The notes under the pieces were generated by a model, which was not told the DNA's origin, did no database searches, and worked only from the letters and a program-made list of their open reading frames with translations. A DNA stretch of 64,000 nucleotides from Candidatus Eiseniibacteriota bacterium (GTDB taxonomy: Bacteria > Eisenbacteria > RBG-16-71-46): contig OY970342.1 in NCBI GenBank assembly GCA_963717505.1, forward strand, positions 2,848,001 to 2,912,000. The letters are read 5' to 3'. Below are positions 45,083-64,000 of this stretch, one piece after another. Numbering within the stretch: position 1 is the first letter of the stretch; each line of letters starts with the position of its first letter. The translations under genes and the position numbers were made by a program.

Positions 45083-45292
45083 TGGAACCTCCTGCATGTG
45101 TGATCGACGAACCACGATGTGCAGTAGCCAGGAACCCCGAATCCTCCTCTTTGTGGGGCCATGCTGGGCGGGGAGATGCTCGCGCCGTCAGGAATGATCC
45201 GTCGCGAGAATGCGTCCGTCAATCGGGATTTTGGGCCGCTCTCAAGTGGCCAGGCTGTCTTTGCATGGACCCGGAGGAGTAGCCTGCTGAGC

Positions 45293-46492: not shown

Positions 46493-46550
46493 ATCCACCT
46501 CCCAGTTGCCACAATTGCCCTGCGACGGGGGGCAGGAAGATACTCGCCGC

Positions 46551-48074: not shown

Positions 48075-48091
48075 CCACTCGAAGCGAGGCT

Positions 48092-48181
48092 CTGGCGTCC
48101 CCAACCATCGAGAATTCGAACCGCCTGATCGGCTGGTTGCGGGGGATGGATGGGCTCAAGCAGGATCTCAAGACCCCCTGA
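48092..48181 (+). repeat. att-like element copy A (antisense tRNA-Glu 3' end plus peptide tail)
   Basis: TGGCGTCCCCAAC...ATTCGAACC; reads LASPTIENSNRLIGWLRGMDGLKQDLKTP*; homologous to 62505 and 63243. Confidence 0.8.
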
Positions 48182-48295
48182 GGACCTGCTGCCTCGGCTC
48201 AGCTTCGACGACACGGTGTCGGTGACGGCGGGCGAAACGCAGGTGGCGCCGAAGGCGCCACCGACATACGCACTCTGCGGGGCGGAGGATGGGCC

Positions 48296-49279
48296 GTGCG
48301 AGCGGCGGTCAACACGCGCTACGGATCCCCGGACGTCATAGAGATCCGGGAAGTCGCCAAGCCTTTGCCGAAGGTGGGCGAGGTCTTGGTCAAGGTTCAT
48401 GCGTCGACGGTCAGTCGGACCGACTGCGGCTTTCTCCGCGCTCATCCCTTTGCGATGAGGCTCTTCACGGGGCTATTGCGACCGCAGCGGACGATCCTCG
48501 GCATGGACTTCGCAGGCGTGGTCGAAACGGTTGGCGCGAACGTCAAGTCGTTCCGCCCCGGCGAAAGCGTGTTTGGCCTGTTGCGATGGCGCGAACTCGG
48601 CGCCCACGCCGAATATGTCTGCGTGCCCGAAGCCTCGTACATCGCCAAGATGCCGACGGGCGTGACCTTTGAGCAAGCCGTTGTCGGCGAGGGCGCCTTC
48701 TATGCCTATACTTCGCTGATGCAGCTCGGCCTGAAGCGCGGACAACGCATTCTGATCTATGGCGCGTCGGGCGCCATAGGCACAGCAGCGGTGCAGCTCG
48801 CCAAGTCTCTTGGCGCGGACGTGACGGCGGTTGTCGCCACGCGCCATGTCGACCTTGCCAAGTCCCTCGGCGCGGCGAGAGTGATCGACTACACCGCTCA
48901 GGATTTCACGCGAATCGGGGAGACGTTCGACTGCGTGCTGGACGCTGTCGGGAAGGCTAGCTATTTCCGGTGCCGACGATTGCTGAAGGCAAGCGGGGTG
49001 TTCGCCGCAACGGACGCCGGGCCTGGGGGGCAGACATTGCTGCTCGCGATCTGGTCGTTCATCACCGGGAGCAAGAGGGTTCTTGCTGTGATCCCGAAGC
49101 GGGTCGAGCGTTTTGTCGACTACTTGAAGGAGCGCATTGAAGCGGGCGAGATTCGTGCGGTCATCGACAGGCGATATCCGCTCGAGGCGATCGCCGACGC
49201 CTACCGCTATGTCGAGCAAGGCCAAAAGACCGGGATCGTCGTCGTCAACGTGACGCCGGCGAGTGATCAGCACGCCTGA
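48296..49279 (+). CDS. NAD(P)-dependent MDR oxidoreductase (quinone reductase-like)
   Basis: YGSPDV, ILGMDFAG, GAHAEY, GASGAIG, VIDRRYPL; GGAGG SD. Confidence 0.92.
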   Translation: MRAAVNTRYGSPDVIEIREVAKPLPKVGEVLVKVHASTVSRTDCGFLRAHPFAMRLFTGLLRPQRTILGMDFAGVVETVGANVKSFRPGESVFGLLRWRELGAHAEYVCVPEASYIAKMPTGVTFEQAVVGEGAFYAYTSLMQLGLKRGQRILIYGASGAIGTAAVQLAKSLGADVTAVVATRHVDLAKSLGAARVIDYTAQDFTRIGETFDCVLDAVGKASYFRCRRLLKASGVFAATDAGPGGQTLLLAIWSFITGSKRVLAVIPKRVERFVDYLKERIEAGEIRAVIDRRYPLEAIADAYRYVEQGQKTGIVVVNVTPASDQHA

Positions 49280-49393
49280 TCGTGTCGCCGAGTGACGCTC
49301 CAGTCGCAGCACCTTGGACTGCCGCAGCATGGACACCCTGGCTCCCGGTGTGCCGCGCTCTCGCCGCGTAGAAGTGGCGGCCCCGGCTGAACG

Positions 49394-49916
49394 TCATTCC
49401 CGTCGCTGCCCGCTGCCGAGGAACGTGTTCCAGATTGTGTTTTCGAGGGTGGCCATCGCGGCCTCGAGCTCCGCGCGGTCTTTGATCGTTTCGGAAGTCG
49501 TGCCTTCCGCGGCAAGCGTTTCCGCACATCGCGCTTTGATGGGCAGGCCCTGGTCGCGACTTCCCAATCGGCCCAGCATGGCTCTCACTTGCCGGATCTG
49601 CTCCTGGACGTCCCTGATCTGTTCCAAGGCTCGCTCGACCGTGACGGCACCGCGCTGCGCGTTCTGGAGCAGGTGGCACTGGAACTCGCGACAGCACTTC
49701 GGACGATGGGCGTAGATGCCGCATCGTGTTCCACGCAGGGCCGCACAGGGCTTCGAGAGCAGGCCTGTGTGTCCTGCCCTGGTTCTCGACGTCCATCCCA
49801 ATGATCTCGAGTCGAGCGACCTCGGCCTGACCGACCAGCTCGACGTCGGCGAACAGCGTGCCGTCGCAGCACAGCCCGCAATTCGTGCACAGGGTATCCG
49901 TGAGGAGAGGTGTCAT
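49394..49916 (-). pseudogene. YkgJ-family gene with a frameshift
   Basis: N-terminus MTPLLTDTLCTNCGLCCDG and C-terminus PCAALRGTRCGIYAHRPKCC lie in different frames; shift in the ACACACA tract near 49766-49772; paralog of 30694. Confidence 0.8.
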
Positions 49917-50009
49917 GGGGGGACAATGGTCTATCGCGTCGCGATTCGAAAGGGGTGACTTGAAGTTCCTCCGTCTTTGCCGATGATTAGTCAGAACACG
50001 GGAGGAGCT

Positions 50010-51338
50010 GTGAAGACTAGTACGGAGCGTCGAAAACCGCAGGGTGGTCTCCGGGGGGCCGCCGTCACCTCCGTTGTCGGTTGTGGCGGCCGCCTCTTGC
50101 CGGTGCTCGCGATCGCCCTGTGGACGGCTCCCTCCGCCCAAGCCGTGCCCAACGCGACGCTGTGGGTCGTGCAACCGCCGGGGGAGATCGTCGCGTTCGA
50201 CGTCACCCGGTTCGAACGTGTCGGGGGCATACGGCTGCCGGTCCAGATCTACCACGATCCCAACAAACTCGCGATCAATGGCGTTGGCCAGATCATGGCA
50301 GCGCTGGATGAGCAAAGGCTTTGGCTTTGGGACGGCAGAACAGCGCGCGTGCTTCCCATCGAAACCAGTGTGAACGCAAACCGCGATTCCCGGCGGATCG
50401 CGAGCAAGCCGGCGCAGTGGCTGCTCGGTGACGACGGCAACTCGCTGGTCGTGCTCGAGTCGGTCGTGAAGGACTCCAGCAGACCAAGCGCTGGGGCCGA
50501 GTCGCTGATCGTTGTTCGCGAAACGTCGCTCGAACAGGAGCCACGCGACACGATCGCGTCGTGGAGATTGCGCTACTACGAGTGCCGGACTTCCCAAGTT
50601 GCAGACTTCACAGAACCTTGCCCGGATCCACGGCTCTATGCGCCGGGAGGGATCGTGCGGGGATCTCTCGCAGTCATGTGGTGGGAACGGGACTCGACAC
50701 TGTGGCACGAGGAGGGAACGCCGGCACTCGGTGGGTGCAACATTTCCCGACTCGTGCGGCAGGCTTCGGATTGGCGCGAACTCACCGACTGGAGCAATGG
50801 CGAACTTCCGCTCGATCTCGCAGCCAACGGAGCCTGCCTGTTCGTTGATCGTGATGGCGGTTGCTGCGGCTGGATCAATGAGAGTAGCGATCTCGTGATT
50901 TGTTCAACGCCAGAAACTAGCCTAGTGGTTTTCGACGAATGGCGACGCTTTGAAAACGCCGACTATGACGTGAGTTTCATGGCGACTTCTGCTCGCCTCT
51001 CGCCGGACAATCGTCGCGTCGCGATGACCATTGTGGGTACGTCATCTGCCATCGAAGGAATGCGCCTTTCGGCAGACGGGCAGGCAGATTCGGTCAAGCT
51101 TGCCGGTATTCAACGCGCATTGGCGACATTGCCCATAGCAATGGTGACCCGACTGTCGGAGCCGGGAGAAGTGCCGTTCGAGCTGCCGAACACCGAGGTG
51201 GTTGGTTGGACGAGCGAGCGCGAGCTCATCGTCGTTCAGGACCGCGAGCTGGTCGCTGTCGATGTCGTCACCCGCCGCACTCGATCCACAGGGATCCGCG
51301 TGAGGAGCGCAGCGGATGCGATCGTCGCGCGGAAGTAG
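50010..51338 (+). CDS. Hypothetical secreted protein
   Basis: GGAGGAG SD before GTG; signal-like segment; DGGCCGW.NES.D motif. Confidence 0.7.
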   Translation: MKTSTERRKPQGGLRGAAVTSVVGCGGRLLPVLAIALWTAPSAQAVPNATLWVVQPPGEIVAFDVTRFERVGGIRLPVQIYHDPNKLAINGVGQIMAALDEQRLWLWDGRTARVLPIETSVNANRDSRRIASKPAQWLLGDDGNSLVVLESVVKDSSRPSAGAESLIVVRETSLEQEPRDTIASWRLRYYECRTSQVADFTEPCPDPRLYAPGGIVRGSLAVMWWERDSTLWHEEGTPALGGCNISRLVRQASDWRELTDWSNGELPLDLAANGACLFVDRDGGCCGWINESSDLVICSTPETSLVVFDEWRRFENADYDVSFMATSARLSPDNRRVAMTIVGTSSAIEGMRLSADGQADSVKLAGIQRALATLPIAMVTRLSEPGEVPFELPNTEVVGWTSERELIVVQDRELVAVDVVTRRTRSTGIRVRSAADAIVARK

Positions 51339-51369
51339 ACGCGTGGTTTGCCGCGGGGAACGCTTTGTG

Positions 51370-52461
51370 ATGGGCCTGGCGGCAGCGATCGCAGCTGGGA
51401 GCCTGCTCGCACCCAACGTGTATGCCGACTCGCCCGACCGCGCAAAGCCTTCACTCTGGCTGGTCAGCTACTTCGCCGAAGCGCGCGACAAGTCGAATGG
51501 TATGGCGATCGAGTGGCGCCTGTTCGATCCAGCAACGCGGGTCGATTCGGTTCTGGTCGCCTTAGTCAGTTCGCCAGCAGCCGTGCGGATCAACTCCTCC
51601 TATACCGAGGCCACCTTCGCTTTGGGAGGCGCGATGCAACGCTTGCGCTGGGAATGGGGCGCCCAACCGTGGTCGGAGATCCCACTTCCCGATGCTCGGT
51701 GCATCGACGTCTGGTTCGACCAACGGGCTCGCTGCTGGTGGCTAGTCAGTGGTGATGTCATCCAACTGGGAAGAAACGCATTTCCTGGCCAGCTCTGCCG
51801 GTACGACTTCTGGCGCAGCACCGCGGATGGGAAGGACTGGAGTATCGCTCGTCGCGAAACCACGAGCTGCGTCACCTTCAGCTGGACTGGATGGACGTCG
51901 ACTCGGAACATCGAACCCGGTGCCGAGGCCGGGTTCGGGCTGTGGTTAGGGCAGGCCGCGATGACGCCCGATCGCTGGGGCCTGCCACCCCAGGCGATCT
52001 CGCCGCCGCAGGGCCAGAACGCGTCGGGGCCGCCCTGGTACTTCGTCGGATCGCGAGTCATCAAGGGCCTTGGGCTGGCCTACCGGATGGAGATGTTTCG
52101 CGGGGATCCGTCGAAGGGCCAGCGAGCCCAAGAGTGGTTCGTCACCGCGCCGTTTGTCCTCGTGGACAGGACCAATGGGAGCGAACGCGTTCTCGATGCG
52201 CCCAACTTCGGCCCCCTTGGCCAGCGCGTCCGACTAGGAATTGAAGAACGCGACGGCTTCGTCCTGCTCAGTGGTGACCGGAACTATCTCTACGACCTTC
52301 GCACCGGGGAGCAGTTGCTCCCGAGCTCGGCGAGGTCGCCAATCGTTTGGGTTCCCCGTCCAGTGCCGATGCGCGTTGACACAGCTGGATTCGAGCGGTT
52401 GCGCGCTCGTTTCGAGACGAGATCCGGTGGCGCTACGACGCCGCGGCATGAAAAACGTTGA
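51370..52461 (+). CDS. Hypothetical secreted Trp-rich protein
   Basis: Signal peptide ending VYA-D; long ORF following the previous gene; start uncertain. Confidence 0.65.
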   Translation: MGLAAAIAAGSLLAPNVYADSPDRAKPSLWLVSYFAEARDKSNGMAIEWRLFDPATRVDSVLVALVSSPAAVRINSSYTEATFALGGAMQRLRWEWGAQPWSEIPLPDARCIDVWFDQRARCWWLVSGDVIQLGRNAFPGQLCRYDFWRSTADGKDWSIARRETTSCVTFSWTGWTSTRNIEPGAEAGFGLWLGQAAMTPDRWGLPPQAISPPQGQNASGPPWYFVGSRVIKGLGLAYRMEMFRGDPSKGQRAQEWFVTAPFVLVDRTNGSERVLDAPNFGPLGQRVRLGIEERDGFVLLSGDRNYLYDLRTGEQLLPSSARSPIVWVPRPVPMRVDTAGFERLRARFETRSGGATTPRHEKR

Positions 52462-52485
52462 CTTGGGCACGCTGACGCCTAGACT
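52458..52485 (+). promoter_or_regulatory. Putative sigma70 promoter
   Basis: TTGACT-16 nt-TAGACT, about 150 nt upstream of GTG 52641. Confidence 0.55.
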
Positions 52486-52640
52486 TGTGTGCGACGACAC
52501 GTCGGGAGGTCGAGCAAAACCCTGCCGACTCGTAGGTGAGAACCAAGCGAGATAGTCGTGCCCACCAGTTGAGGAGGCGCACCGGGAACCAGGCTACTGC
52601 TGACGAGTTGAAGTGTTCGTTTCTCGTGCAGGAGGTGCCT

Positions 52641-54641
52641 GTGTCTCGCTTCCGCCTAGGCTCCGAGAGAAGTTCGCTGCTCGACATGCCACCGATCGCC
52701 GCGGCATTGACGTTGGCGTTCATTCCCCTCGTTGTGTCCACGTGTAGCGCGGCGTGGGTCCCGAACGGCGCGCCTGTCACCATGGCGCCGGGCGAACAAT
52801 CATTGGAATCCACGGTTCCCGACGGGAACGGCGGCGCATACGTGTTCTGGCGGGACAACCGCCTCGGCTACGACTACGCACCCCGATACGACGTCTTCGC
52901 CCAACACCTGGACGCCGAAGGCGAAGTGGTTGCCGGATGGGACCCGCAGGGCAACCCGATCGCAAACACCGATGACCACGAAGGCGGTGCTCGTGCCATC
53001 AGCGATGGCGCGGGCGGCGCGATCGTGATGTGGGCGGCAGGCAACTATCGCCTGCAGCGGGTTCGCCCTGATGGGTCCCATGCCTGGTCATCCGGCGGTG
53101 TGTCCGTCTCGGATGACGGCGCCGCCCGCGTGTCCGGCCAAGTCATGCCCGACGGTTCGGGAGGTGTCTACGTCGTTTGGGCCAACGCCGTGGTGAGGCC
53201 ATCGCTCGAGGCGCTCTGCCCGCGCTGTCATCCCAGCTACACCTATCATCTCTTCGCACAGCGCATCGATGCATCCGGCAACCGTCTGTGGGGCGCGATG
53301 GGGGTACCGGTGACTCCAGACTCCATCGCTGGCAACGTAACCCTGCTCCTCGGCAACGAGGGGCGTCCGCTCATCCTATGGATCGATGTGCTGGGAATGT
53401 ATCGAGCCCAGGAACTCGACTCCGATGGACATGCTCGCCTGCAACCAGATGGTCAGGTCATTCCGCATCTTCGCGGCGGGCTCACTGCAGCTACCGGACC
53501 GCGCCAAGCGGTGACCGTATTCAACTACGGGGAGGACACACACGAAGACATCGCGGCCCAACACCTCGGGCCCGATCTCACGGTGGACTGGGGAGAGTCG
53601 GGCCAGCCGATCGTCGTCGAGGCTCACAAACAGGAGCCAACAGGGATGACCGGCGATGGTGAGGGCGGCGTACTGCTCGCATGGCACGATATCCGGAACG
53701 CCGTTAGTTGGGATGTGTATCTCACTCGCGTGACATCGGGAGGAAGCTTGGCTGAAGGCTGGCCGGATCATGGACTTCCCGTTTGCACGATGTCGGAGAG
53801 GCAAGACAGTCCGACACTGATCTCCGATGGAGACGGCGGGGCGTACGTGGCATGGATAGACCTTCGAGAACCGACCAACGGCTACGACCTCTATCTGCAA
53901 CGTGTACTCGGAACCGGGACTATTGCGGCGGGCTGGCCAGACCAGGGCCTTCCGATCTGTATCATTCCGCAGCAACAGGTGAACCCCCAGCTCGTCGCCG
54001 ATGGCAACGGCGGAGTCATCGTCGTTTGGAACGACTATCGGCGTGGCTCGGAAATCTACGCGCAAAGGATCGATGCTCACGGTCGGATCGGCGACCAGCA
54101 CACTGCGGTTATCGTGTCGCAAGCAATTCTTACGGTCGACGCAAACGACGTGACTGCCGAATGGCAGGTCGACGTGGCAGGAATCAATAGCGTCGAAGTC
54201 CTGCGGTCGAGCGTTGCCCGCGGCGTCGAACGGCTCGGAACGGCATTGATCAATGGCTCGCATCGCGCACGGTTCACGGATCGCGACGTGCCTTCAGGCC
54301 GTTACGGGTATGCGATTGAACTCGTGCATCTCGGGACGACCATGACCACTGAATTCACCTGGATCGACGTCGTGCCCTCAGCTCGGCTTGCGCTCGAGGG
54401 TTTCCGTCCAAATCCATCGAACGGATGGGCTCCGATTGCGTTCGTTCTCCCCGAGGCCGGGCCCACGCAAGTTGAAATCTTCGACATACGAGGACGTCGG
54501 ATGCGTGATCTGAGAGAGGCTCACTTGAGCGCTGGGTCCCACTCCATCGCGGTCGGTGGGCGTCTACCGGCGGGTGTCTATTGGATCCGACTGACGGCCG
54601 GGACTCGAAGTATTGCGGCCCGAGGGGTGGTCCTCGACTAG
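52641..54641 (+). CDS. Secreted repeat protein with CTD, paralog of 43319..45082
   Basis: WVPNG start of the mature protein; DG.GG...W.D.R repeats; PNPS..GVYW C-terminus; AGGAGG SD. Confidence 0.85.
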   Translation: MSRFRLGSERSSLLDMPPIAAALTLAFIPLVVSTCSAAWVPNGAPVTMAPGEQSLESTVPDGNGGAYVFWRDNRLGYDYAPRYDVFAQHLDAEGEVVAGWDPQGNPIANTDDHEGGARAISDGAGGAIVMWAAGNYRLQRVRPDGSHAWSSGGVSVSDDGAARVSGQVMPDGSGGVYVVWANAVVRPSLEALCPRCHPSYTYHLFAQRIDASGNRLWGAMGVPVTPDSIAGNVTLLLGNEGRPLILWIDVLGMYRAQELDSDGHARLQPDGQVIPHLRGGLTAATGPRQAVTVFNYGEDTHEDIAAQHLGPDLTVDWGESGQPIVVEAHKQEPTGMTGDGEGGVLLAWHDIRNAVSWDVYLTRVTSGGSLAEGWPDHGLPVCTMSERQDSPTLISDGDGGAYVAWIDLREPTNGYDLYLQRVLGTGTIAAGWPDQGLPICIIPQQQVNPQLVADGNGGVIVVWNDYRRGSEIYAQRIDAHGRIGDQHTAVIVSQAILTVDANDVTAEWQVDVAGINSVEVLRSSVARGVERLGTALINGSHRARFTDRDVPSGRYGYAIELVHLGTTMTTEFTWIDVVPSARLALEGFRPNPSNGWAPIAFVLPEAGPTQVEIFDIRGRRMRDLREAHLSAGSHSIAVGGRLPAGVYWIRLTAGTRSIAARGVVLD

Positions 54642-54716
54642 ACGATCCAATGGACTCGCTCAGGCCGCAGGGTTCGCCGGCTCGAAACTACGGAGTGAGG
54701 CAATCGCCTCGATCAC

Positions 54717-56444
54717 TCAATGCATGGTCCGCCGGCCCGCCCGAGTGACTCCCGTCCTGAGTAACCCCGCCTCCACGAGCGTCGGCGGCTTGCGCCAATT
54801 GCCCGCTCTTTCCCACGCGGCCGCGATCGCGAGCAGGTCGCCGTCCGCCCATGGACGACCGGCGAACTCCAAGCCGAACGGAAGCCCGCTCTCGTAGAAG
54901 CCCGCGGGCACCACGATCGCCGGCACGCCGATCATGTTCACCCAGCTGGTGGCGGAGTGCGGACCCGTACTCAGCTTCCCGTCCTGCGCCATCGTCTCGT
55001 CAGGTGGCGGAATTTGGATGGCGGGGTAGACGAAGCCGTCAAGCTCGAGGCGGTCGAGCGTGGCGATGTACGCGTCGAGCAGCGCCCGCTTCGGCGCGCG
55101 ATACATCTGCTCGGCGTCGGGATCGGTGGCCAGCTCGCGCTGGTTCAAGTGCTGACCACCCACGATCCGATAGTCGTCTTCGGTGCCGATGGACGACGTG
55201 TACAAAGGGACACCCATCGCCCTCTGATAGTCGGCCGCGGAGCGATACTCCGCCGGTCCGAAGATGCCGAGAAAGCGGTCGGTCCCATCCTTTGTGTACG
55301 CGTACGTGGCGACGCGGCTGGCCAGCGTCGCGAACCCCGACGGGAGTATGGAATCGCCGGTCACGATCTCGGCGCCGGCCGCCCGAAGCGAATCCAGGGC
55401 CTGGAGGAACATCGCACGCGTCTTGGGTTCCAGCGGGACGTCCGCAGCACGGCGCAGCTTTTCGGCGGCGACGTCCGAGACGGTGTAGGGGATACCGCGA
55501 AACGGCACGCCGTCGCCCGCGAGCACGAAAGCCGGGACACCGAAGCGCTTGCCCTCGAGGGACGCGGACGGCAGGCCATTCGTGAACGGCCCGCGCTGTG
55601 CCGTCGCGGGGGCTGCGAGCGTGGCCGAGTCGAGGGAATCGGAGCCGGCCATCACGGCGAGCGCAATCGCGGCGTCGGTCACGTTGCGTGCGATCGGCCC
55701 GGTGTTGTCCAGGAGCCAATCCAGCGGAGCGATGCCCGCGGTGCTCACCAATCCGCGCGTGGGGAACACGCCGACCAGGGCGCTGGTTGCCGCCGGCATG
55801 CGGATGGAGTTGCCGGTGTCGGTACCGTTGCCGAGCACGGCCATGTTCGCGGCGACTGCCGTCACGACGCCGCCGGAGGAGCCGCCAGGGGAAAAGCGGA
55901 CGTCGTAGGCGTTGCCGGTCCGCCCGAACGATGAGCTGCGGTTGGTGTCGCTGTTCGCGAGGTCCGGCATGTTGGCGAGGCCGACGATGATGGCTCCGGC
56001 CGCGCGGAGTCGCTCGACGATCGTTGCGTCGCGGGGCGCGACGAGCTCGTGGCCGGGGCGCACGAAGCCTTCCCAACCGGCGGTCGTCACCTGCCCCTTT
56101 ACGCTGGTGTTGGCCTTGATGACGATGGGAACGCCCCAGAGCGGGCCGCGCTCCGCCGTCGCTGCCTCTGCATCCAGCCGGGCCGCCTCCGCGAGCGCGT
56201 CGTCGCGCAGAGCCGTCTCGATGGCGCCATAGACACCGTTGTAGCGGTCGATTCGGTCCAGGTGCCACCGGACCACCTGAGTGACCGTGTATCGGCGGTC
56301 CGCGTAGAGCTGCTGCAGCCGTGGGACGGTGAGGTCCATCAGGTCGCGGTCGGCGGCGCGGCCGGGTACCGCGACTTCTGGGGCTGTACGGCTGCATCCC
56401 GAGAAAGCGAGAGCGACGACGAAGAGCGACCAAGGGAGCTTCAC
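54717..56444 (-). CDS. Amidase-signature family lipoprotein
   Basis: FSGC lipobox; GVPIVIK, GGSSGG, GTDTGNSIRMPA (Ser-cisSer-Lys triad). Confidence 0.92.
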   Translation of the reverse strand: MKLPWSLFVVALAFSGCSRTAPEVAVPGRAADRDLMDLTVPRLQQLYADRRYTVTQVVRWHLDRIDRYNGVYGAIETALRDDALAEAARLDAEAATAERGPLWGVPIVIKANTSVKGQVTTAGWEGFVRPGHELVAPRDATIVERLRAAGAIIVGLANMPDLANSDTNRSSSFGRTGNAYDVRFSPGGSSGGVVTAVAANMAVLGNGTDTGNSIRMPAATSALVGVFPTRGLVSTAGIAPLDWLLDNTGPIARNVTDAAIALAVMAGSDSLDSATLAAPATAQRGPFTNGLPSASLEGKRFGVPAFVLAGDGVPFRGIPYTVSDVAAEKLRRAADVPLEPKTRAMFLQALDSLRAAGAEIVTGDSILPSGFATLASRVATYAYTKDGTDRFLGIFGPAEYRSAADYQRAMGVPLYTSSIGTEDDYRIVGGQHLNQRELATDPDAEQMYRAPKRALLDAYIATLDRLELDGFVYPAIQIPPPDETMAQDGKLSTGPHSATSWVNMIGVPAIVVPAGFYESGLPFGLEFAGRPWADGDLLAIAAAWERAGNWRKPPTLVEAGLLRTGVTRAGRRTMH

Positions 56445-56484
56445 GGGTCGAGACTACCACTTGGTTTGGTCCGGCTACCGTGCG

Positions 56485-57453
56485 TCAGGGCCGCGTGATT
56501 TGGCGTCGGTCGCTGCCGTCGACGTTCATGGTCCAGATCACTCCGCCCGCCCCGGTGGAGTCTAAGCCGCTGTAGGCCACCCGGTCGGCAGGTCCAACCG
56601 AGAATTGAAACCAGAAGTGCACGCGAGGATCGCCGAGATCAAACGAGAGCCGCTGCTGCGCCGACCCATCGGAGTTTACGACCCACGACTTCGTCACGGA
56701 CGGATCGCCGAATGTGGCCGGGCTGGGCGTAAAGTGGAAATAGATTCGCTGACCATCCGCAGACCATTGGAGGTTGGCGCACCAGCCATTGAGGTGAGTG
56801 AGCTGTCGATAATCTGTGCCGTCGGCCTCGACCGCACAAATGTTGCCGCCCGTGCCCGACTCGTTCGACATGAAGGCTATGGTTCGCCCGTTTGGGGACC
56901 AAACGGGGTAGCTTCCGAAAGTCACGTTCGAATCTGGCCGGATCAGCGCCCGTTGATCGCCCGTCATGGTGTCGATGATGTGGATACCGGACGTGGAATC
57001 GGGAGCGGATGGCGCACGCGCCGTGATTAGATAGATCAGAAATCGGCCGTCCGGAGACCATGAAGGGTAGGCAGCATACGGGCCGGTCCACGTCCGCGTC
57101 TCGCCCGTGGCGATCACGACGGTGGAAATGCCGCCCTCGTAGTACGCGATGCGGCTGCCATCCGGTGACCATGCAAGCTGGGGGGAGACCGCAGGCCAAA
57201 TGCCGAGCAGCGCTGTAGGAGAGCCACCAGAAACGCCGACGATGGCGATATGTTCGGTGTCGGCGGAATCGCGCGGTTCGTGCAGGTAGGCAATCGATTG
57301 TCCGTCTGGAGACCACGTGGGGATGGCGTCAAGACTCCGGTAGCGCGGAAAGGGCTGGGGCCGGGTGGGCGAACTCGAACAAGCGGCGAAAAGGGCCACC
57401 GCGCACGCGGCCAGAACAATCCGCGTCCCGCGCCGCATCCTTCTGGAATTCAT
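56485..57453 (-). CDS. TolB-like PD40-repeat lipoprotein
   Basis: FAAC lipobox; multiple WSP[DN]G repeats. Confidence 0.85.
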   Translation of the reverse strand: MNSRRMRRGTRIVLAACAVALFAACSSSPTRPQPFPRYRSLDAIPTWSPDGQSIAYLHEPRDSADTEHIAIVGVSGGSPTALLGIWPAVSPQLAWSPDGSRIAYYEGGISTVVIATGETRTWTGPYAAYPSWSPDGRFLIYLITARAPSAPDSTSGIHIIDTMTGDQRALIRPDSNVTFGSYPVWSPNGRTIAFMSNESGTGGNICAVEADGTDYRQLTHLNGWCANLQWSADGQRIYFHFTPSPATFGDPSVTKSWVVNSDGSAQQRLSFDLGDPRVHFWFQFSVGPADRVAYSGLDSTGAGGVIWTMNVDGSDRRQITRP

Positions 57454-57590
57454 CTCGAGGTGAAGCAGTCCGAAATCCCTCTCCGCGGGGCCGACATCGG
57501 CTTGTCACTCAAGGGCACAATACAGCCCGGCATACCACGGAGTTCCAGAAGGTTGGGGCAGGTCGGGACAACCTAGCGGGCTGAGTGTCC

Positions 57591-60008
57591 CTACCGCCCG
57601 GGGCTGGCTCTGCTCATGCCCTCGAACAAAGCCAGAATGCGCTTGTACTCGTCCAGCCAGCTGTCCGCGTGCGAGAAGTTGTGTCGATCGAGCGGGTACG
57701 GAGCCAGCGTCACCTCGTCCTTGTGCAGTTCGATCAGCCGCTGGTAGAGCCGCACCGAGTCCTCGAACAGGACGTTGTCGTCGAGCATCCCGTGGCAGAT
57801 GAGCAGCGGACCCGCGAGGCCTTCGGCGAACTCGATGGGGGATGACCTGCGATAGGCGAGGCTGTCCACTTGCGGCGTGTTGAGGATGGCCGCGGTGTAG
57901 CCGTGGTTGTACTGCGACCAGTCGGTGACTGGACGCAACGCGGCGCCGGCATGGAAAACGTCGGGCTCTTTGAACATCGCCATCAGCGCCATGAAGCCGC
58001 CGTACGAGCCGCCGTAGATGCCGACTCGGCGCTCGTCGCCGCCATGCTCGCGCACCAGCCACCGCACCCCGTCCACCAGGTCCTCCAGCTCGGGCGTGCC
58101 CATCCGGCGATAGATCGCGGTACGCCAGTCGCGGCCGTAGCCCTGCGAGGCGCGGTAGTCCATGTCGAGCACGACGTAGCCGCGCTCGGTCAGCAAGTGG
58201 TGGAACATCTGCTCGCGGAAGTAGTACGGAAACTGGAGCTGGGTGTTCTGCAGGTAGCCGGCGCCGTGCACGAACATCACGATCGGATGGAGCCCCGTGG
58301 TATCGGCGGGCAGGTAGAGACGCGACCAGATCGGCGCTGCGCCGTGACTCGACGGCACCGCCACGATGCGTGGCTCCGGCCACTGGATCGCCTGGTACTC
58401 GGCGGTGCGCGTGTCCGTGAGCTCGCGCAGTGCGCCGCCGGAGGAAGCGCACACCGCGAGCTGCGTGGGCGTGTGTGTCGCAGAGTGCTGAACCCACAGC
58501 TTAGTGCCGTCCGGCGAAAGACCGAACGCGCTGCAGCCCTGGAGCGGCGTGAGCCGAGCGAGGGGACCGCCCGTGCTCGGCACGCGATAGACGTCGTACG
58601 CGTACGGCGCCTCGGCGTTGGACAGCGCGTAGATCCAGCGTCCGTCGGGAGAGACCTCGGGCGAGGACACCTCGAAACTTCCGCTGGTGAGCGCGACCGC
58701 GGGACTTCCGGGCACTTTCGCGTAGAGGTGCGAATAGCCAGTTTCCTCGGATAGGAACCAGAACCGCTTGCCGTCCGGCATCCAACCGGTCTGGTTGTGG
58801 CCCCAGTTCACCCAGGCGCTGTCGGTGAGCCGATGCTCGGGCCTTAGTGCGTGCTTTTCGAGGTCCACGGTCGCGAGCCAGCGGTCCTTGTGGTCGTGAG
58901 CGGTGAACCGCACCAGGGCTTCAGTGCCCTGCGGATTCCACCAGATCGCGGATACATCGAGCGGGCGTTCCTTGGGTTCGGACGACCCGGCACCGGCGCT
59001 GTCGGGTTTCGCCTTGCTGGTGTCGGGCGCGTCGGACTTGCGCTCGCGCTGGTTCTCCGCGCGCACGCTCGCCAGCATGTCGGCCTTGATCCCCGGCAGT
59101 GGCGCGTACGCGAGCTTGTGCCGCGTACGCTGCTCCAGGTCTACGAGCCATAGCGTCTCGGGCGCCGGCCCGCTCCGTCCCACGCGCGTGCGCGTTTCCT
59201 CGACTTCCTCGTAGCCCGATTCGGTCACGTACATCGGCATCTTGCCGACGCGGCCCGCGTCGTAGCTCTTGGCCGTGGTCACGGCAAAGACCCAGCGGCC
59301 GGTGGGCGAGATTTCAGTCTGAGTCAGCACCACGTCGTCGCCCACATACACCGGCAGCGGCGAGCGACTGGGATCGGAGCGACGCAGGAACTCAGCGTGG
59401 CTCTTGAGCGAGTCGCGGTCGGCACGGTCGCGTGCGAGCGTTGCGATCTGCCGGAGCTGCATCCGCTCTAGATCGTTGGTCTTATTCTCGTCGGGGTCCT
59501 TGCCGGCTACCACCATCGCAGCCGGGCCGGTCACGCGACTGGCCAGGTCGTACGCGTACCAGTCGTTCCCGATGCGGAACAGCACCCGCGCCCCGTCGGA
59601 CGAGAATCGAGGCGCGGCCTCCGTCACGGTACTGCGAGTGACTTGGGTGAGTTTCCGGTTCCCCAGCTCACGCACGAACAGGTCTCCATTGCGGATGAAC
59701 GCCGCGCGCTTTCTCGCGGGGTCGAAGACCGGGTTCTGCGCGTCGAGGTCGGCGAGATCCGCGGGCGGGACCGGCCGGTATGCGCCCCCGGATGCCGCCA
59801 CTCGGTGGAGGTCGCGCACCGGCGAGCCGGGGCGCTTGAGGCTGAACAGGATCGAGCGTCCGTCCAGCGACCAGTAGGGTCGTTCCACCGGCGGCCCGAT
59901 CCAGTCCGGGTCGGCCATGATGCGTTCGAGCGTGAGGGGTGCCGCGTGCGCCGGAGATGCGAGCAGGGAGACGGCCAGTGTGGTGATGAGCCACGGGACA
60001 CAGCGCAT
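57591..60008 (-). CDS. S9-family (DPP IV-like) peptidase
   Basis: Signal peptide; propeller domain; HGAGY, GGSYGG, DDNV, H (catalytic Ser-Asp-His). Confidence 0.93.
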   Translation of the reverse strand: MRCVPWLITTLAVSLLASPAHAAPLTLERIMADPDWIGPPVERPYWSLDGRSILFSLKRPGSPVRDLHRVAASGGAYRPVPPADLADLDAQNPVFDPARKRAAFIRNGDLFVRELGNRKLTQVTRSTVTEAAPRFSSDGARVLFRIGNDWYAYDLASRVTGPAAMVVAGKDPDENKTNDLERMQLRQIATLARDRADRDSLKSHAEFLRRSDPSRSPLPVYVGDDVVLTQTEISPTGRWVFAVTTAKSYDAGRVGKMPMYVTESGYEEVEETRTRVGRSGPAPETLWLVDLEQRTRHKLAYAPLPGIKADMLASVRAENQRERKSDAPDTSKAKPDSAGAGSSEPKERPLDVSAIWWNPQGTEALVRFTAHDHKDRWLATVDLEKHALRPEHRLTDSAWVNWGHNQTGWMPDGKRFWFLSEETGYSHLYAKVPGSPAVALTSGSFEVSSPEVSPDGRWIYALSNAEAPYAYDVYRVPSTGGPLARLTPLQGCSAFGLSPDGTKLWVQHSATHTPTQLAVCASSGGALRELTDTRTAEYQAIQWPEPRIVAVPSSHGAAPIWSRLYLPADTTGLHPIVMFVHGAGYLQNTQLQFPYYFREQMFHHLLTERGYVVLDMDYRASQGYGRDWRTAIYRRMGTPELEDLVDGVRWLVREHGGDERRVGIYGGSYGGFMALMAMFKEPDVFHAGAALRPVTDWSQYNHGYTAAILNTPQVDSLAYRRSSPIEFAEGLAGPLLICHGMLDDNVLFEDSVRLYQRLIELHKDEVTLAPYPLDRHNFSHADSWLDEYKRILALFEGMSRASPGR

Positions 60009-60066
60009 GGGGCGCGAGGATACTTCAACCTGGACGGCGAAGTCTGCCCCTGACAGTCTCCGCTAC

Positions 60067-61158
60067 ATGAAGCTTCTCTGCTGCTTGCTGGTCTTGTCGG
60101 TCTCGCTCTCGAAGTCGTTCGGTGATGGCGGCGCCGGCGGTGCTGGTGCGAAGGCGGTGGCCGCGAGCGGGGTCGACACGCTGTTCCTGCCCGAGCCGGT
60201 CCAGGTCGAGAGCACTGCGGCCTCTGCTCCTCGTGGACATGTGAGTTGCGGGCTGAGCGATAGGTCCGGGCGCCTGTGGTTCGGCACTTCGGAAGGGCTC
60301 ATGCGGTTCGATGGGCGGAGCTTTACGCGGTTCATCGAGGTGGACAGCCTGCGCGATGCGCGTGGCTACGCGAATTGGGAGCACATCTACTCCATCTTCG
60401 AAGACCGAGCCGGGCACATCTGGTTCGGCGCCCCGAACGGCGTGTACCGGTACGATGGAAACACGTTCACCTGCTGGGCAATCCCGGCGCGCGACTTCAA
60501 GGACCGGAACGACTACCCGAGCCCCGAGAGCCGGTTGTCGAACCCGCTGCCTCCCACTGCGGTCATAAGTATTCTGCAGGATCGGCACGGAGCTCTCTGG
60601 TTCGGCACCTGGGGAGGTGGTGTCAATCGCTACGACGGCACCTCGCTGACCAACCTCTCGGAGAAGAATGGTCTCTGCAGCAATGTGGTCCAGAGCATTC
60701 TCGAGGACCGCAAGGGGAGCATGTGGTTTGCAACCCGGGGCGGTGGCGTGTGTCGCTACGATTGGCGTTCCTTCACGACATACGCGACGCCAGGGGACGC
60801 AATCAGCTATCACGCGTTCTTCATTGCGGCCGACACGGCGGGCGTGCTGTGGACCGGCACGGTCGGTGGAGGTCTGCGTCGGTTCGATGGAACGGGCTTC
60901 ATCCCGGTCGCGGAGCCCGATCTCGTGAACGTCACCTGCATGCTGCAACGCCGCACCGGCGAGCGCTGGTACGGCACCAGCTCTGGTGTCTACCGATACG
61001 ACGGTCGAGCCTTGACCCGCTTCGCAGCGAAGGACGGCACGGGCAGCAATTCCGTCTGGGCCATCGTGGAAGACAAGAGCGGCAGCCTCTGGTTCGGCAC
61101 GCGGAAGGGCCTGTGCCGCTACGACGGGCGGTCGTTCACCCGCTTTCCGGAAGAGTGA
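60067..61158 (+). CDS. Secreted Reg_prop beta-propeller protein
   Basis: Seven I.ED..G.[IL]WFGT..G..RYDG..FT repeats; no kinase domain. Confidence 0.85.
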   Translation: MKLLCCLLVLSVSLSKSFGDGGAGGAGAKAVAASGVDTLFLPEPVQVESTAASAPRGHVSCGLSDRSGRLWFGTSEGLMRFDGRSFTRFIEVDSLRDARGYANWEHIYSIFEDRAGHIWFGAPNGVYRYDGNTFTCWAIPARDFKDRNDYPSPESRLSNPLPPTAVISILQDRHGALWFGTWGGGVNRYDGTSLTNLSEKNGLCSNVVQSILEDRKGSMWFATRGGGVCRYDWRSFTTYATPGDAISYHAFFIAADTAGVLWTGTVGGGLRRFDGTGFIPVAEPDLVNVTCMLQRRTGERWYGTSSGVYRYDGRALTRFAAKDGTGSNSVWAIVEDKSGSLWFGTRKGLCRYDGRSFTRFPEE

Positions 61159-61222
61159 GGGTTCCGACACGCAATGGAATCGGGACAGGCGGCTGTGCGC
61201 GACGTGAAAGTGCCGGAACCGA

Positions 61223-62398
61223 TCAGCGGAGCCGCACAAACCGACGCGACTGCCGTTCCGGGCCGGATCCGGCCACAAGCAGGTAAAGCCCCGCGGGTGC
61301 AGGCCGGCCACTCGAATCGAGTCCGTCCCAGCTCAGCTCGTGCGGCCCGGGCGTGAACACGTCGTCTGCGATCAGGCGCAGCCTGCGACCCTCGACGTCG
61401 ACGACCTCGACGCGCATGCGCCGTGGGTCGGGCACGTCGAGCCGGAACCGGACCGTGCCGCGATTCGGGTTCGGCATGGGCGCCGAGAGCCGTGCGCCGC
61501 TGGGCTGCGGGTCCGGAAGGCCCGCAACCGTGTTCTCGACGACGAAGTACTGCTGTCCCGGAACGCCATCGAGATCCACGCTGGATGCAGGACCAAGGGC
61601 GCAGGTGCCGGGCGGAACCGGGCCGAGGAGCTGGTTGGAGATCTCGACATCCAGCCCCGACGGGCGCGCGAGCAGCACGCAGATCCGGAACGGACCGGTG
61701 GGATCCCCGAGCGCGGCTAGCGGCACGGCCCATTCGAGTCCGCTCGTGACCCCGCTTCCCGAAGACGCGTTGCAACCTGCGTCGACGCCTCCTGTGTTCG
61801 AGCGATCGAAGCTGGCGAGGATGCCGTGGGGATTGACCGCGCCGGGGCCGACGAGAGTGCCTGGGGGCCCCAGCACCCCCCGGCCGAGGAAGGAGCCTGT
61901 GGCGCCGCCGACAGACGGCAGTTCCGCGAAGTAGGCCGGAAACCCGGCGGCGTCGCGGGCCACGGCGAGCCAGTAGTCGGGGGCGAACTCGGCGTCGAAC
62001 GTGAGCTCCGCCACGCTTTGAAGCGTCACCCAATCCTGCGGGCTCGAGTTGTCGTCGCTCAGGCTGTTCTGGCCGCCGGATCGCGTGTCGACGAACACAT
62101 GCAGCTGCGCCACCGGGTAGAGGAACTCGCTGTAGAAGCGATTAAGGCTGCCCGCGATGAACAGGAACAGCTTGCCGTCCTCGACCAGCACGTACGCGGC
62201 GTCCAGCTCGGATCCGGGGGAGATTTCGTACTGGTAGTCGCCGAGACTCGTCTGTGTCGATTGGACGCTCAACGGCTCGCCATAGGTGGCGTCGAGGATC
62301 CCATCCACCACCGGCGCAGCACTGGAGTTGGCGACCGGAGCGAGCAGCGCCACGCCGTAGAGGAGGACGCGAAGTCGATGCCCTGATGCCGTCCCCAT
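61223..62398 (-). CDS. Secreted protein with FlgD-Ig/CTD domain
   Basis: Signal peptide; VDG.LD..YG, GSELDAAY, SNQ.LG motifs; PNP..WDG..GLY C-terminus. Confidence 0.82.
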   Translation of the reverse strand: MGTASGHRLRVLLYGVALLAPVANSSAAPVVDGILDATYGEPLSVQSTQTSLGDYQYEISPGSELDAAYVLVEDGKLFLFIAGSLNRFYSEFLYPVAQLHVFVDTRSGGQNSLSDDNSSPQDWVTLQSVAELTFDAEFAPDYWLAVARDAAGFPAYFAELPSVGGATGSFLGRGVLGPPGTLVGPGAVNPHGILASFDRSNTGGVDAGCNASSGSGVTSGLEWAVPLAALGDPTGPFRICVLLARPSGLDVEISNQLLGPVPPGTCALGPASSVDLDGVPGQQYFVVENTVAGLPDPQPSGARLSAPMPNPNRGTVRFRLDVPDPRRMRVEVVDVEGRRLRLIADDVFTPGPHELSWDGLDSSGRPAPAGLYLLVAGSGPERQSRRFVRLR

Positions 62399-62504
62399 GC
62401 GGGCGAGGTTATCAGATGAGCGAGCGGGCCGAACCGACGAACTACGATGTTGCTCGCCTCCGATCGGTGGCTTCTCGGCGGAGGCGGCGCGGCGCCGATC
62501 CCAT

Positions 62505-62591
62505 GTGGCGTCCTCAACGGGCGCGGATTCGAACCGCTTGGCGGCGTGGCTTCGCGGGATGGATGTGCTCCGTCGTGTTTTGGCTGTGTAG
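62505..62591 (+). repeat. att-like element copy B
   Basis: TGGCGTCCTCAACGGGcgcggATTCGAACC; reads VASSTGADSNRLAAWLRGMDVLRRVLAV*. Confidence 0.8.
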
Positions 62592-62601
62592 CTGTCCCCG
62601 C

Positions 62602-62630
62602 TTGCGCATAGTAACGGCCCGCGTTACTAT
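62602..62630 (+). promoter_or_regulatory. higBA promoter with operator palindrome
   Basis: TTGCGC-17 nt-TACTAT; perfect inverted repeat ATAGTAACG-gcccg-CGTTACTAT at 62608-62630. Confidence 0.8.
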
Positions 62631-62636
62631 CGAACG

Positions 62637-62918
62637 GTGATTCGGAGCTTCCGAGGCAAGGACGCCCACCGGCTCTTCAACCGCAGCCCTGTCCGGAGGC
62701 TCGGGGCGGACGTTCAGCGCATCGCGCTACGCAAGCTAAGGCAGCTCGATGCTGCGGTTGCGCTGGAAGACCTTCGCGTTCCACCGGGCAATCGCCTCGA
62801 GAGACTCCGCGGTGATCGGGCCGGGGAGTGGAGCATCCGGATCAACGACCAGTGGCGCATCTGCTTCCGCTGGGAGGGAGGCGATGCTCATGACGTGGAG
62901 ATCGTGGATTACCACTGA
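62637..62918 (+). CDS. higB: HigB/RelE-family toxin
   Basis: MIRSF, LRVPPGNRLE.L.G, SIRINDQWRICF, VEIVDYH. Confidence 0.95.
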   Translation: MIRSFRGKDAHRLFNRSPVRRLGADVQRIALRKLRQLDAAVALEDLRVPPGNRLERLRGDRAGEWSIRINDQWRICFRWEGGDAHDVEIVDYH

Positions 62919-62930
62919 ACTGGAGAGCTC

Positions 62931-63236
62931 ATGGCGACCAAGAAACTGACGCCGATTCATCCGGGAGAGATCCTGCTGGAGGACTTTCTCGAGCCACTGG
63001 GCTTGTCTCAGTACCGGCTAGCAAAGGGACTCAACGTTCCGGCCAGGAGAATCAACGAGATCGTCCTTAGGAAGCGCGCGATTACCGCCGACACGGCCTT
63101 GCGACTGGCGCGTTTCTTCGGAACCTCTGATCGGTTCTGGCTGAATCTCCAGGCAGCCTATGATCTCGATGTCGAGCGTGATCGCCTGGCTGGGCGGCTC
63201 CAGCGTGAGGTGGAAGTGCTGCGGCGCGCGAGCTAA
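62931..63236 (+). CDS. higA: HigA antitoxin (XRE HTH)
   Basis: IHPGEILLEDFL, ITADTALRLARFFGTS..FWLNLQ..YDL. Confidence 0.95.
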   Translation: MATKKLTPIHPGEILLEDFLEPLGLSQYRLAKGLNVPARRINEIVLRKRAITADTALRLARFFGTSDRFWLNLQAAYDLDVERDRLAGRLQREVEVLRRAS

Positions 63237-63242
63237 GAGTCG

Positions 63243-63335
63243 CTGGCGTCCCCAACGGGCGTGGATTCGAACCACCTCATCGGTTGGCTTCACGGAATGT
63301 ATTCCCTCCAGAGGTCTCTGGAGACTGCTGCGTGA
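63243..63335 (+). repeat. att-like element copy C
   Basis: TGGCGTCCCCAACGGGcgtggATTCGAACC; reads LASPTGVDSNHLIGWLHGMYSLQRSLETAA*; contains the CTCCAGAG-gt-CTCTGGAG hairpin. Confidence 0.8.
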
Positions 63336-63382
63336 GGGGTTGCCAGACACCACTTCCCGGGAGATCGCCTGTTGTGCCCCAT

Positions 63383-64000
63383 CTAGTGGCGAGTTGGCTC
63401 GGATGGCGATGGTCGGGGCTTCGTGACCTGGATGATGAGCGGCTTGGTTGTCACGTAGCCTCGCCAAAGTCGCTCGAGTGGGAGATCTTTGCCCCGCAGT
63501 GGCAGGAATTCGCCGACTCCGAGTTCGAAGCGAATGCCGTATCGCCCCGCCTCTCCGAAGCACTGGCCGACGGCGCCATTACGATCGACGACGTCTTGAC
63601 GATCAGCGCCGCGCACGGGAGCTGCCGAAAACACATCCCAATCGCAGGCTGGACCAAGGTTCATGTCGAAGCGCCCTCGACCGAACCTGACGGGGTACAC
63701 AAGGCTATCGCCTGGACTCAGTGAGACGAAATCGGACTTGGAAAGTGTCCGCCCCAGGGAGTAGGCAATGCTTGGCTCCAAGACGCATCGGCGAGCCGAT
63801 GTAGCCCCCCAGACACGGACACGGAGATCCCATTCCCCTTCCTCTAGCATCTGCTCTGGCTTCGGGCGAAGGAGGACCAACGTATCCGACCCCGCGTTCA
63901 AGAACACGAGATTGAGATCGATCGCTTCACCCGCTGCGAAAACCGTGGTCGGTGTTCGGACGACCAACTGAAGCGACTGGGAGGTCGTCGCAGGCGTGAC
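63383..64000 (-). CDS. Hypothetical Ig-like-fold protein, 5'-partial
   Basis: Frame open to the window edge; F..GE.I.L, N.G.D.L, L.PGDS, GRY pattern. Confidence 0.6.
   Translation of the reverse strand, partial: VTPATTSQSLQLVVRTPTTVFAAGEAIDLNLVFLNAGSDTLVLLRPKPEQMLEEGEWDLRVRVWGATSARRCVLEPSIAYSLGRTLSKSDFVSLSPGDSLVYPVRFGRGRFDMNLGPACDWDVFSAAPVRGADRQDVVDRNGAVGQCFGEAGRYGIRFELGVGEFLPLRGKDLPLERLWRGYVTTKPLIIQVTKPRPSPSEPTRH

Follow-up and report, generated by a model that had tools for sequence, protein, structure and literature searches.

A stretch of 64,000 nucleotides from the genome of a Candidatus Eiseniibacteriota bacterium (assembly GCA_963717505.1, contig OY970342.1, positions 2,848,001 to 2,912,000; hereafter the window, in whose coordinates features are given unless genome positions are specified) contains three copies of a repeat, at 48092-48181 (copy A), 62505-62591 (copy B) and 63243-63335 (copy C), all on the forward strand, which are what remains of the ends of small mobile islands that accumulated next to a tRNA-Glu gene. 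Every repeat begins with 13-16 nt of the tRNA-Glu 3' end (antisense) and continues with about 70 nt coding for a peptide, xNRLxGWLRxMDxLRQ...AA-stop, here called the tail, which is protein-coding sequence. Comparison of homologous genes places the predicted core of the attachment (att) site inside the 3' end of a recombinase gene, and recombinases of two unrelated classes, tyrosine and serine, occur with either of two endings beyond it. The best overall explanation, which is considered very probable, is that the repeats are the left ends of islands integrated at tRNA-Glu and that the tail is a detachable helical C-terminus of the recombinase, acquired or lost according to the integration state of the island.

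Island ends at a tRNA-Glu gene

Copy A consists of the core TGGCGTCCCCAAC from position 48093, a T-loop-like DNA site and the tail codons LASPTIENSNRLIGWLRGMDGLKQDLKTP closed by TGA (hidden Markov model (HMM) E 7.3e-19); copy B has the core and the tail VASSTGADSNRLAAWLRGMDVLRRVLAV closed by TAG (E 3.3e-17), and copy C the core and the tail LASPTGVDSNHLIGWLHGMYSLQRSLETAA closed by TGA (E 8.3e-19). An original prediction made from the letters of the window had located these copies correctly, and their translations agree with the ones that it gave. The three align without gaps over core and tail with 76% mean column identity, and a 30-nt IUPAC pattern derived from them has three matches in the window versus 0.00 expected from 100 shuffles. 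The opening 13-16 nt are identical to the 3' end of the genome's own tRNA-Glu(ttc) gene, which lies outside the window. A whole-genome search with copy C located same-strand copies (A to E) at genome positions 2896093, 2910506, 2911244, 2912161 and 2913970, a plain, shorter tRNA-Glu fragment being present at 2915247; beyond the core, copies A to E have about 70 nt in common with one another that are absent from the tRNA. The same search also matches position 2928848, where the genome's single tRNA-Glu(ttc) gene has its 3' end (c[2928849,2928924]), about 17 kb to the right of the window end and on the strand opposite to the repeats. All copies and the antisense tRNA 3' end have TGGCGTCCCCAAC(GGG) in common, and the six displaced 3' fragments of the tRNA gene (tDNA) on the forward strand match the orientation of the intact tRNA-Glu, antisense on the forward strand at 2928849. 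The same arrangement, with copies downstream of the 3' end of tRNA-Glu, is found in genomes G012, G017 and G032. This layout is the one expected from repeated integration of islands into one tRNA 3' end, with older islands displaced outward.

Each junction on the forward strand reads, in order, older DNA, core and island left end, and therefore the DNA to the right of a core belongs to the right-hand island. Copy A is the left end of a decayed island of about 14.4 kb that reaches copy B, copy B is the left end of a cassette carrying the toxin-antitoxin genes higBA, and copy C marks the left end of the small element that follows, which extends to copy D (window-equivalent 64161, just past the window); further units bounded by same-strand repeats, 0.9-1.8 kb in size, follow just past the window. 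The gene upstream of copy A (46506-48074, phosphodiesterase family) is in a frame different from that of the repeat. Copy B is preceded by an open in-frame stretch (62397-62504, forward strand, 36 codons without a stop) beginning MRARLSDE, which may be the remnant of an integrase 3' end; this identification is weak because the similarity to the catalytic-tyrosine motif MYARLSDE of the G032 integrase extends to 7 of 8 residues at E ~0.9, which is not significant. A word-indexed search of longer proteins with the 64-residue open reading frame (ORF) gave 139 candidates, none at E <= 0.01. The copies in the window are best seen as relics, the islands being without a recombinase, and it is unlikely that their tails are translated at these positions; the signature of codon use that they bear would have come from ancestors in live elements and need not mean translation where they now stand.

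The coding tail and the recombinases that carry it

A set of 26 copies from this genome and its relatives, gapless over 26 codons, carries the coding signal. In the frame of the peptide, synonymous changes make up 33% of the codon pairs that differ, versus 12% and 10% in the shifted frames, and an in-frame stop within 25 codons occurs in 0 of the 26 copies, the corresponding figures for the shifted frames being 10/26 and 2/26. From codon 14 to codon 26 the third-position entropy is 1.28 versus 0.93 and 0.76, and the G+C fraction is 0.78 at third positions versus 0.49 at second positions. One tryptophan is invariant, one leucine is invariant as a residue while being written by five different codons, the position of the stop codon is conserved, and the terminal Ala-Ala is written with varying alanine codons in the copies whose DNA was read. 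The original prediction had concluded from three copies, gapless and with different synonymous codons at conserved residues, that selection acted on a protein; both observations extend to the 26 copies, and the conclusion is borne out by their codon statistics together with the 399 profile matches described below. Codons 1-10, which comprise the core and GAATTCGAAC, are conserved at third positions too, and the codon-like pattern starts at codon 11: the third positions of codons 7-10 (GAATTCGAAC) have entropies of 0.24-0.74, below those of their first and second positions. These ten codons are under DNA-level constraint, and from its sequence the constrained part is probably the crossover region plus a core-type recombinase binding site that mimics the T-arm of the tRNA. 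AlphaFold2, given the 26-row alignment, models a single helix over residues 4-29 (mean predicted local distance difference test score 85), along which the alignment places a hydrophobic stripe of Leu, Trp-Leu, Met, Leu and then Leu/Ile/Val at i, i+3/4, i+7, i+10 and i+14.

Tyrosine integrases fused to the tail without an intervening stop are represented by P0041, P0054, P0058 and P0017, in which the catalytic tyrosine is followed by a linker of 62-65 residues, by LASPT... and then by the tail. A second type of integrase (P0104, with an Arm-DNA-bind_2 domain, and P0116) is fused to it as well, as are large serine recombinases (P0038, with a Zn_ribbon_recom domain, P0136, P0117, and P0079 and P0009, the last two assigned to this class via full-length genomic homologues); in one metagenome contig (L178), about 300 residues of a serine recombinase and the tail form a single frame of 424 codons. 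The other ending is found where the gene abuts the tRNA, as a search of relatives with P0054 showed for integrases of its own subfamily. The tyrosine integrase of G037 occupies an open frame of 420 codons (PF00589, 66.8 bits) that enters tRNA-Glu and ends LASPTGFEPVSPP-stop, LASPTGFEPVSPP being 13 residues of tRNA antisense that end in VSPP, and this termination is represented by the tyrosine recombinase loci L079, L080 and L081 and by two full-length serine recombinases with Resolvase and Recombinase domains (L114 and L115, of genomes G014 and G057), the ORFs of which overlap the tRNA 3' end by 38 nt. G044 and G121 have this LASPTGFEPVSPP ending in genes that are cut by contig edges, and the integrase of G124 has the same frame with one TAG.

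Two pairs of homologues, which compare different elements and not two states of one element, locate the exchange. P0054, which ends VASPTGATSNRLLLWLKEMDSLRRALAA, is 67% identical to the G037 integrase, the homology breaking exactly at ASPTG, and P0009 is 71% identical to the G057 serine recombinase (L115), the homology ending at LASP. Because these pairs have two endings beyond the core, the att core is placed within the 3' end of the recombinase gene, and integration would swap the C-terminus; because the core is translated L-A-S-P-T in the recombinases, in the very frame in which the tail is conserved, the form created at the attachment site of the free element (attP) would be in frame. The original prediction had placed attP inside the 3' end of a recombinase gene, and the divergence of a tyrosine pair and a serine pair at the core agrees with it, as does the occurrence of the motif in frame at the ends of the P0054- and P0009-type proteins. 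Its further proposal, that integration exchanges the helix for a tRNA-antisense tail containing GFEP and that excision restores the helix, stands as far as both endings exist in nature; restoration upon excision follows from geometry, and the window copies themselves are orphans.

A complete island in G028 has the core and the tail (VASPTVPTWNHLRDWLREMDGVRAVLTGEAA-stop) at its left end and an integrase pseudogene abutting tRNA-Glu at its right end. The 4,749 bp that separate the two contain no further TGGCGTCCCC core, and the island carries a gene for the abortive infection (Abi) protein AbiEii as cargo. For the serine recombinase island of G057, a candidate distal end 15.7 kb upstream was too degenerate to use. 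In relatives, members of the same broad integrase family lie against other tRNA genes (L084, L086, L088, L091, L095 and L104), and in some of them (L086 and L095) the ORF likewise continues into the antisense of the tRNA; such read-through of the att core may be common among these integrases rather than confined to tRNA-Glu. A homologue of the G032-type integrase in the Eiseniibacteriota genome itself (genome positions 3433284-3434081) has no tail downstream.

A profile built from the 26 tails matched 399 of 1.84 billion protein cluster representatives at E <= 1e-3. Among the 150 listed matches, on which all counts of tail ends rest, the tryptophan motif is present in 129, of which 110 end at most 22 residues past the tryptophan (mostly 13-17); 76 of these 110 end in Ala-Ala and 96 in Ala, the tag encoded by the host's own transfer-messenger RNA (tmRNA) being ANEQFALAA, with an LAA end. 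By hand count, matches at E <= 1e-5 are present in 23 of 60 further genomes from the family, and among 40 more distant genomes sampled from the class a single match fell below about 0.04 (E 1.4e-4). A scan of one genome per species with the exact pattern found 15 loci, in records labelled Candidatus Eisenbacteria (8), Acidobacteria/Acidobacteriota (2), Verrucomicrobiia (1), Rokuibacteriota (1) and 'uncultured bacterium' (3); those from metagenome-assembled genomes outside Eisenbacteria may reflect binning errors. The tail occurs in many metagenome sequences from soil and sediment. The same pattern matches 63 metagenome contigs in 68 copies, of which two (L178 and L144, assigned by eye) have a recognisable recombinase remnant in frame upstream. 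No viral contig matched the exact IUPAC pattern, a strict one, so that the absence of a phage form is not implied. Long open frames upstream of the copies in G043 (916 residues) and G017 (496 residues) have no Pfam match and look like wrong-frame artefacts of GC-rich DNA, and two others (G037:C208, 307 residues, and G038:C72, 280 residues) were judged by eye to be of the same kind. The unpublished genome G062 is the basis of no claim made here.

Cassettes, cargo and neighbouring DNA

The HigBA cassette (62506-63259, forward strand, 754 nt) comprises core, tail, higB, higA and the next core. The higB gene (62637-62918, forward strand) encodes a RelE-like toxin of a type II toxin-antitoxin system (PF05015, E 8.2e-19), and higA (62931-63236, forward strand) encodes the helix-turn-helix antitoxin (PF01381, E 3.9e-9) and ends in TAA. 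This is the in-frame TAA that the original prediction had noticed ahead of copy C; its presence is confirmed, and it terminates higA two codons before the first codon of the repeat. A cassette in G041 (L015), a member of a different genus of the same family, is 88.9% identical over the 754 nt. The homology opens exactly where core B begins (62506) and closes exactly where core C ends (63259), and none was found in the flanks when window positions 61000-65500 were compared. Conservation of the unit from core to core assigns the tail to its right-hand element. The G041 unit has a tRNA-Glu junction of a different kind after it. Among public sequencing runs, the one richest in the sampled words of the region has 0.23 of them, and the contigs of four runs match 60500-64000 in pieces of only 150-220 nt with no joints, which carries no information on excision. 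One of the public soil runs (X4) yields a short contig that spans the tail of copy B and the start of the cassette (62573-62605) with 10 differences in total from the window, of which the 8 listed cluster around the tail end and stop codon; it suggests a variant of the HigBA cassette in another sample.

The cargo of small islands is of the toxin-antitoxin or abortive infection type, as in HigBA (62637-63236) and AbiEii (L113 7327-8943, in the G028 island), which fits defence or addiction modules outlasting the decay of their islands. In metagenomes, the paired tails L145/L179 and L161/L174 are directly adjacent or separated by 137 nt, which leaves room for hardly any cargo, the two tails of L161/L174 being joined in a single frame without a stop; these amount to an array of 'empty' units.

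From about position 45000 of the window to tRNA-Glu (genome position ~2929000), the G+C fraction is 0.60-0.65 versus 0.677 genome-wide, and from 45000 to 64000 and onward the DNA encodes secreted or periplasmic-looking proteins and, at 57591-60008, an 805-residue ORF that resembles an S9 peptidase (assigned by eye). The whole of this stretch may be accreted island DNA. A second family of tRNA-Glu junctions is represented at genome position 2915247 (window-equivalent 67247) and by L015, L028 and L044; its core is longer, about 24 nt, extending through GATTCGAA, and in several genomes it has a conserved arm of its own in the same frame, LASPTGFE(A/S/D)...SSQPV.Q..KD.DL, without the helix tail. 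It probably represents the left end of islands of another family that use the same tRNA. An additional copy of the tail is encoded on the minus strand at genome positions 2670142-2670207 (…IASWLREMDALRHALAA-stop, HMM E 4.5e-5), where the core-like sequence differs from the tRNA-Glu end; the copy lies about 1.1 kb from a tRNA-Gln(ctg) gene, the 3' end of which this core does not resemble either. Because its core is not that of tRNA-Glu, the tail may pair with other targets.

Mechanism, alternatives and significance

In the favoured explanation, each repeat has three parts: a crossover core consisting of the last 13-16 nt of the tRNA in antisense; a T-loop-like stretch, GAATTCGAACC, conserved as DNA and probably a core-type recombinase site that mimics the tRNA side; and about 20 codons for an amphipathic helix, usually ending in Ala-Ala and a stop. 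The recombinase gene lies at the right end of the island; in a free island carrying attP, or in an integrated one whose right-hand neighbour is a similar island, it would cross the core in the LASPT frame and gain a tail, and in an island directly against the tRNA the same gene ends in the 13 tRNA-antisense residues LASPTGFEPVSPP. The tail-bearing recombinase, produced after excision or with a neighbouring island to the right, would be short-lived or differently active, and the form ending in VSPP would be stable or differently active. By analogy with known systems, the tail would alter the stability or activity of the recombinase, most likely as a C-terminal degron resembling the ssrA-encoded tag, as a docking helix, or as both. 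The degron role taken by itself, which the original prediction had suggested as a ClpXP-dependent switch of direction or stability, is put forward tentatively; a docking or regulatory helix may be the alternative, and is compatible with it. A more speculative possibility, and a rather doubtful one, is that the tail is a portable C-terminal module recording integration state, such that two unrelated recombinase superfamilies independently came to read the same tRNA-Glu core in the same frame, the degron or docking helix sets the direction or frequency of recombination, and the orphan copies act as alternative landing sites that keep an incoming recombinase tail-bearing and supply tails to neighbours.

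Several observations weigh against a detachable recombinase tail. No intact full-length tail-bearing recombinase was found among the 150 listed representatives or the 68 metagenome copies; those examined are all truncated, deleted or short fragments, L178 being without its catalytic N-terminus, L136 without residues 1-207 and P0104, by eye, without part of the catalytic domain. Most copies anywhere are orphans with stops before them, and most database matches are short orphan ORFs. Within the array (2.89-2.93 Mb) lie none of the six genomic matches to PF00589, serine recombinases not having been searched as a family in this genome, and higA ends at its own stop codon. In the integrase subfamily of G032, beside a tail, and G008, beside tRNA-Glu, the ORF terminates 5-7 codons short of the core, although its frame is the same. 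The excised circle was not found, so that the restoration of the tail upon excision follows from geometry alone; the degron role is argued by analogy only; and the helix prediction is weak evidence because short peptides, such as this one of 30 residues, are often modelled as helices.

Other readings of the repeats account for part of these data. It is improbable that the conserved 70 nt function as DNA only, as a P' arm of attP with sites for the recombinase and host factors in which the open frame is incidental and untranslated. Such an arm would accommodate the DNA-level constraint on the first ~30 nt (the low third-position entropy of codons 7-10), the stops that precede most copies, and the retention of the tail, as a recombination site would be retained, by the integrase-less HigBA cassette, but it leaves unexplained the codon-like variation from codon 11 onward (a synonymous fraction of 0.33 versus 0.10-0.12, with 0/26 in-frame stops), the invariant leucine reached through five codons, the conserved stop position, the Ala-Ala end of 76 of the 110 listed tails, and the recombinase ORFs that continue into the tail without a stop. 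That the tail is an independent small protein of about 30 residues, starting at an NTG codon that overlaps the CCA end of the tRNA, is less probable by a good margin: public gene calls often show a 30-residue ORF and the first codon is ATG, GTG or TTG in 17 of the 26 copies, but it is CTG in the other 9, its first base is unconstrained (1.83 bits of entropy), and the upstream sequence is neighbouring DNA that differs at each copy, so that no conserved promoter or ribosome-binding site is possible. The tRNA 3' end at the start of each repeat and the T-loop-like TTCGAA within it might evoke a structured RNA derived from tRNA, or a tRNA-like short mobile element, yet this reading is scarcely credible: ARAGORN predicts no tRNA and Rfam no family in the window, folds of five copies on both strands have z scores from -0.87 to +1.99 and give no signal, and substitutions track codons rather than base pairs, which disfavours the RNA-structure covariation that the original prediction had named as the pattern contrary to its own.

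The repeats might instead delimit an integron-like array of cassettes, on which a recombinase encoded elsewhere acts in trans and to which the link with recombinase C-termini is secondary. The small units of cargo between same-strand repeats (754 bp for HigBA, 0.9-1.8 kb beyond the window), the conservation of the HigBA unit from core to core in another genus, the lack of a recombinase in the array in the PF00589 search, and the near-cargoless copies (L145/L179 and L161/L174) would all suit such an array, which is nevertheless judged improbable, about as much so as a function at the level of DNA alone. No integron-type integrase adjoins the array, no attC-type hairpin is present and no fold is better than those of shuffled sequences, and the array is anchored on a tRNA gene at which complete islands with their own recombinase exist. 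Integrase-less derivatives can be moved by the recombinase of a neighbour, according to the idea of 'CIME' accretion; such movement of decayed islands in trans is compatible with a detachable recombinase tail and is no replacement for it.

Published systems provide precedents for the parts of this mechanism. The closest in bacteria is phage Mx8, in which attP lies within int and integration gives int a new 3' end, altering the C-terminus and the properties of the integrase (PMC6070905); the Islander paper describes the integrases of both Mx8 and SSV as reaching across attP (PMC4383910). In Mx8 as in the present system, the att core is in the 3' part of the recombinase ORF, whereas the piece exchanged here is a short conserved Ala-Ala helix common to several families of recombinases, including serine recombinases, and the elements are small islands with toxin-antitoxin or Abi cargo rather than phages. 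In a phage collection the G037 integrase matched 396 records, all at less than 60% identity (24-29% in the 15 listed), Mx8 not having been looked up by name; from its sequence the system would work like Mx8, without membership of the Mx8 family being implied. In mycobacteriophage BPs, the coding sequence for a C-terminal degradation tag of the ssrA type on the repressor extends across attP, and integration into a tRNA gene removes the tag (PMC4557955), the integrase of BPs-type phages also being C-terminally tagged (PMC4557955, PMC6109161). Prophages of Bifidobacterium have ssrA-like ends that likewise mark proteins for degradation and are lost on integration (PMC4557955, PMC6109161). The gene that spans attP is a repressor there and a recombinase here, with no repressor at the junctions examined, and proteolysis, demonstrated there, is proposed here by analogy; as for the ends, 76 of the 110 listed tails have a terminal AA and 96 a terminal A, the tmRNA tag of the host has LAA, and the form adjacent to the tRNA has VSPP. 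The 'suicidal' archaeal integrases of the SSV type have the recombination site inside the integrase ORF (PMC7253208), but the SSV gene is split into two inactive parts, whereas in the present system the exchange is confined to roughly the last 22-25 codons and leaves the catalytic domain whole. The original prediction had cited BPs (PMC4557955) and SSV (PMC7253208) accurately but had not named Mx8, the nearer bacterial case. Displaced 3' tDNA fragments, oriented as the tRNA gene, mark the ends of islands, and arrays form at a single tDNA (PMC4383910); the Islander collection, which requires an integrase for each island, has 3,919 islands and 125 tandems of at least two, of which only 4 are of at least three (PMC4383910), in contrast to the present array of at least six same-strand junctions with no integrase in the PF00589 search. 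Pelagiphages and Tweety were considered as further cases of attP inside int and set aside, attP being outside the gene in both, and KplE1 was set aside because its overlap concerns a promoter and not the 3' end. A literature search covering a limited set of papers, without their supplements, returned no description of the tail or of a serine recombinase ORF that crosses the att core of a tRNA gene.

That a recombinase gene can span its own att site (Mx8, SSV), that integration can detach a degradation tag (the BPs repressor) and that islands can stack at tRNA genes were each known separately. What is new is one conserved Ala-Ala tail that recombinases of both the tyrosine and the serine class share, in the same frame and at a single tRNA, together with its abundant orphan copies and the integrase-less cassettes that run from core to core. 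The system would join attP within a recombinase gene, as in Mx8, with a detachable tag, as in BPs, so that the detachable piece sits on the recombinase itself; the functional part of this comparison is drawn by analogy. The tail accounts for the common start-less 30-residue 'genes' annotated beside tRNA-Glu (399 representative clusters at E <= 1e-3), and it is a marker for mapping island ends after the integrase has been lost. If the tail controls the stability of the recombinase or the direction of recombination, it would be a candidate component in the engineering of directional integrases of the serine or tyrosine type, and it would give a mobile element a simple and general way to sense its own integration state.

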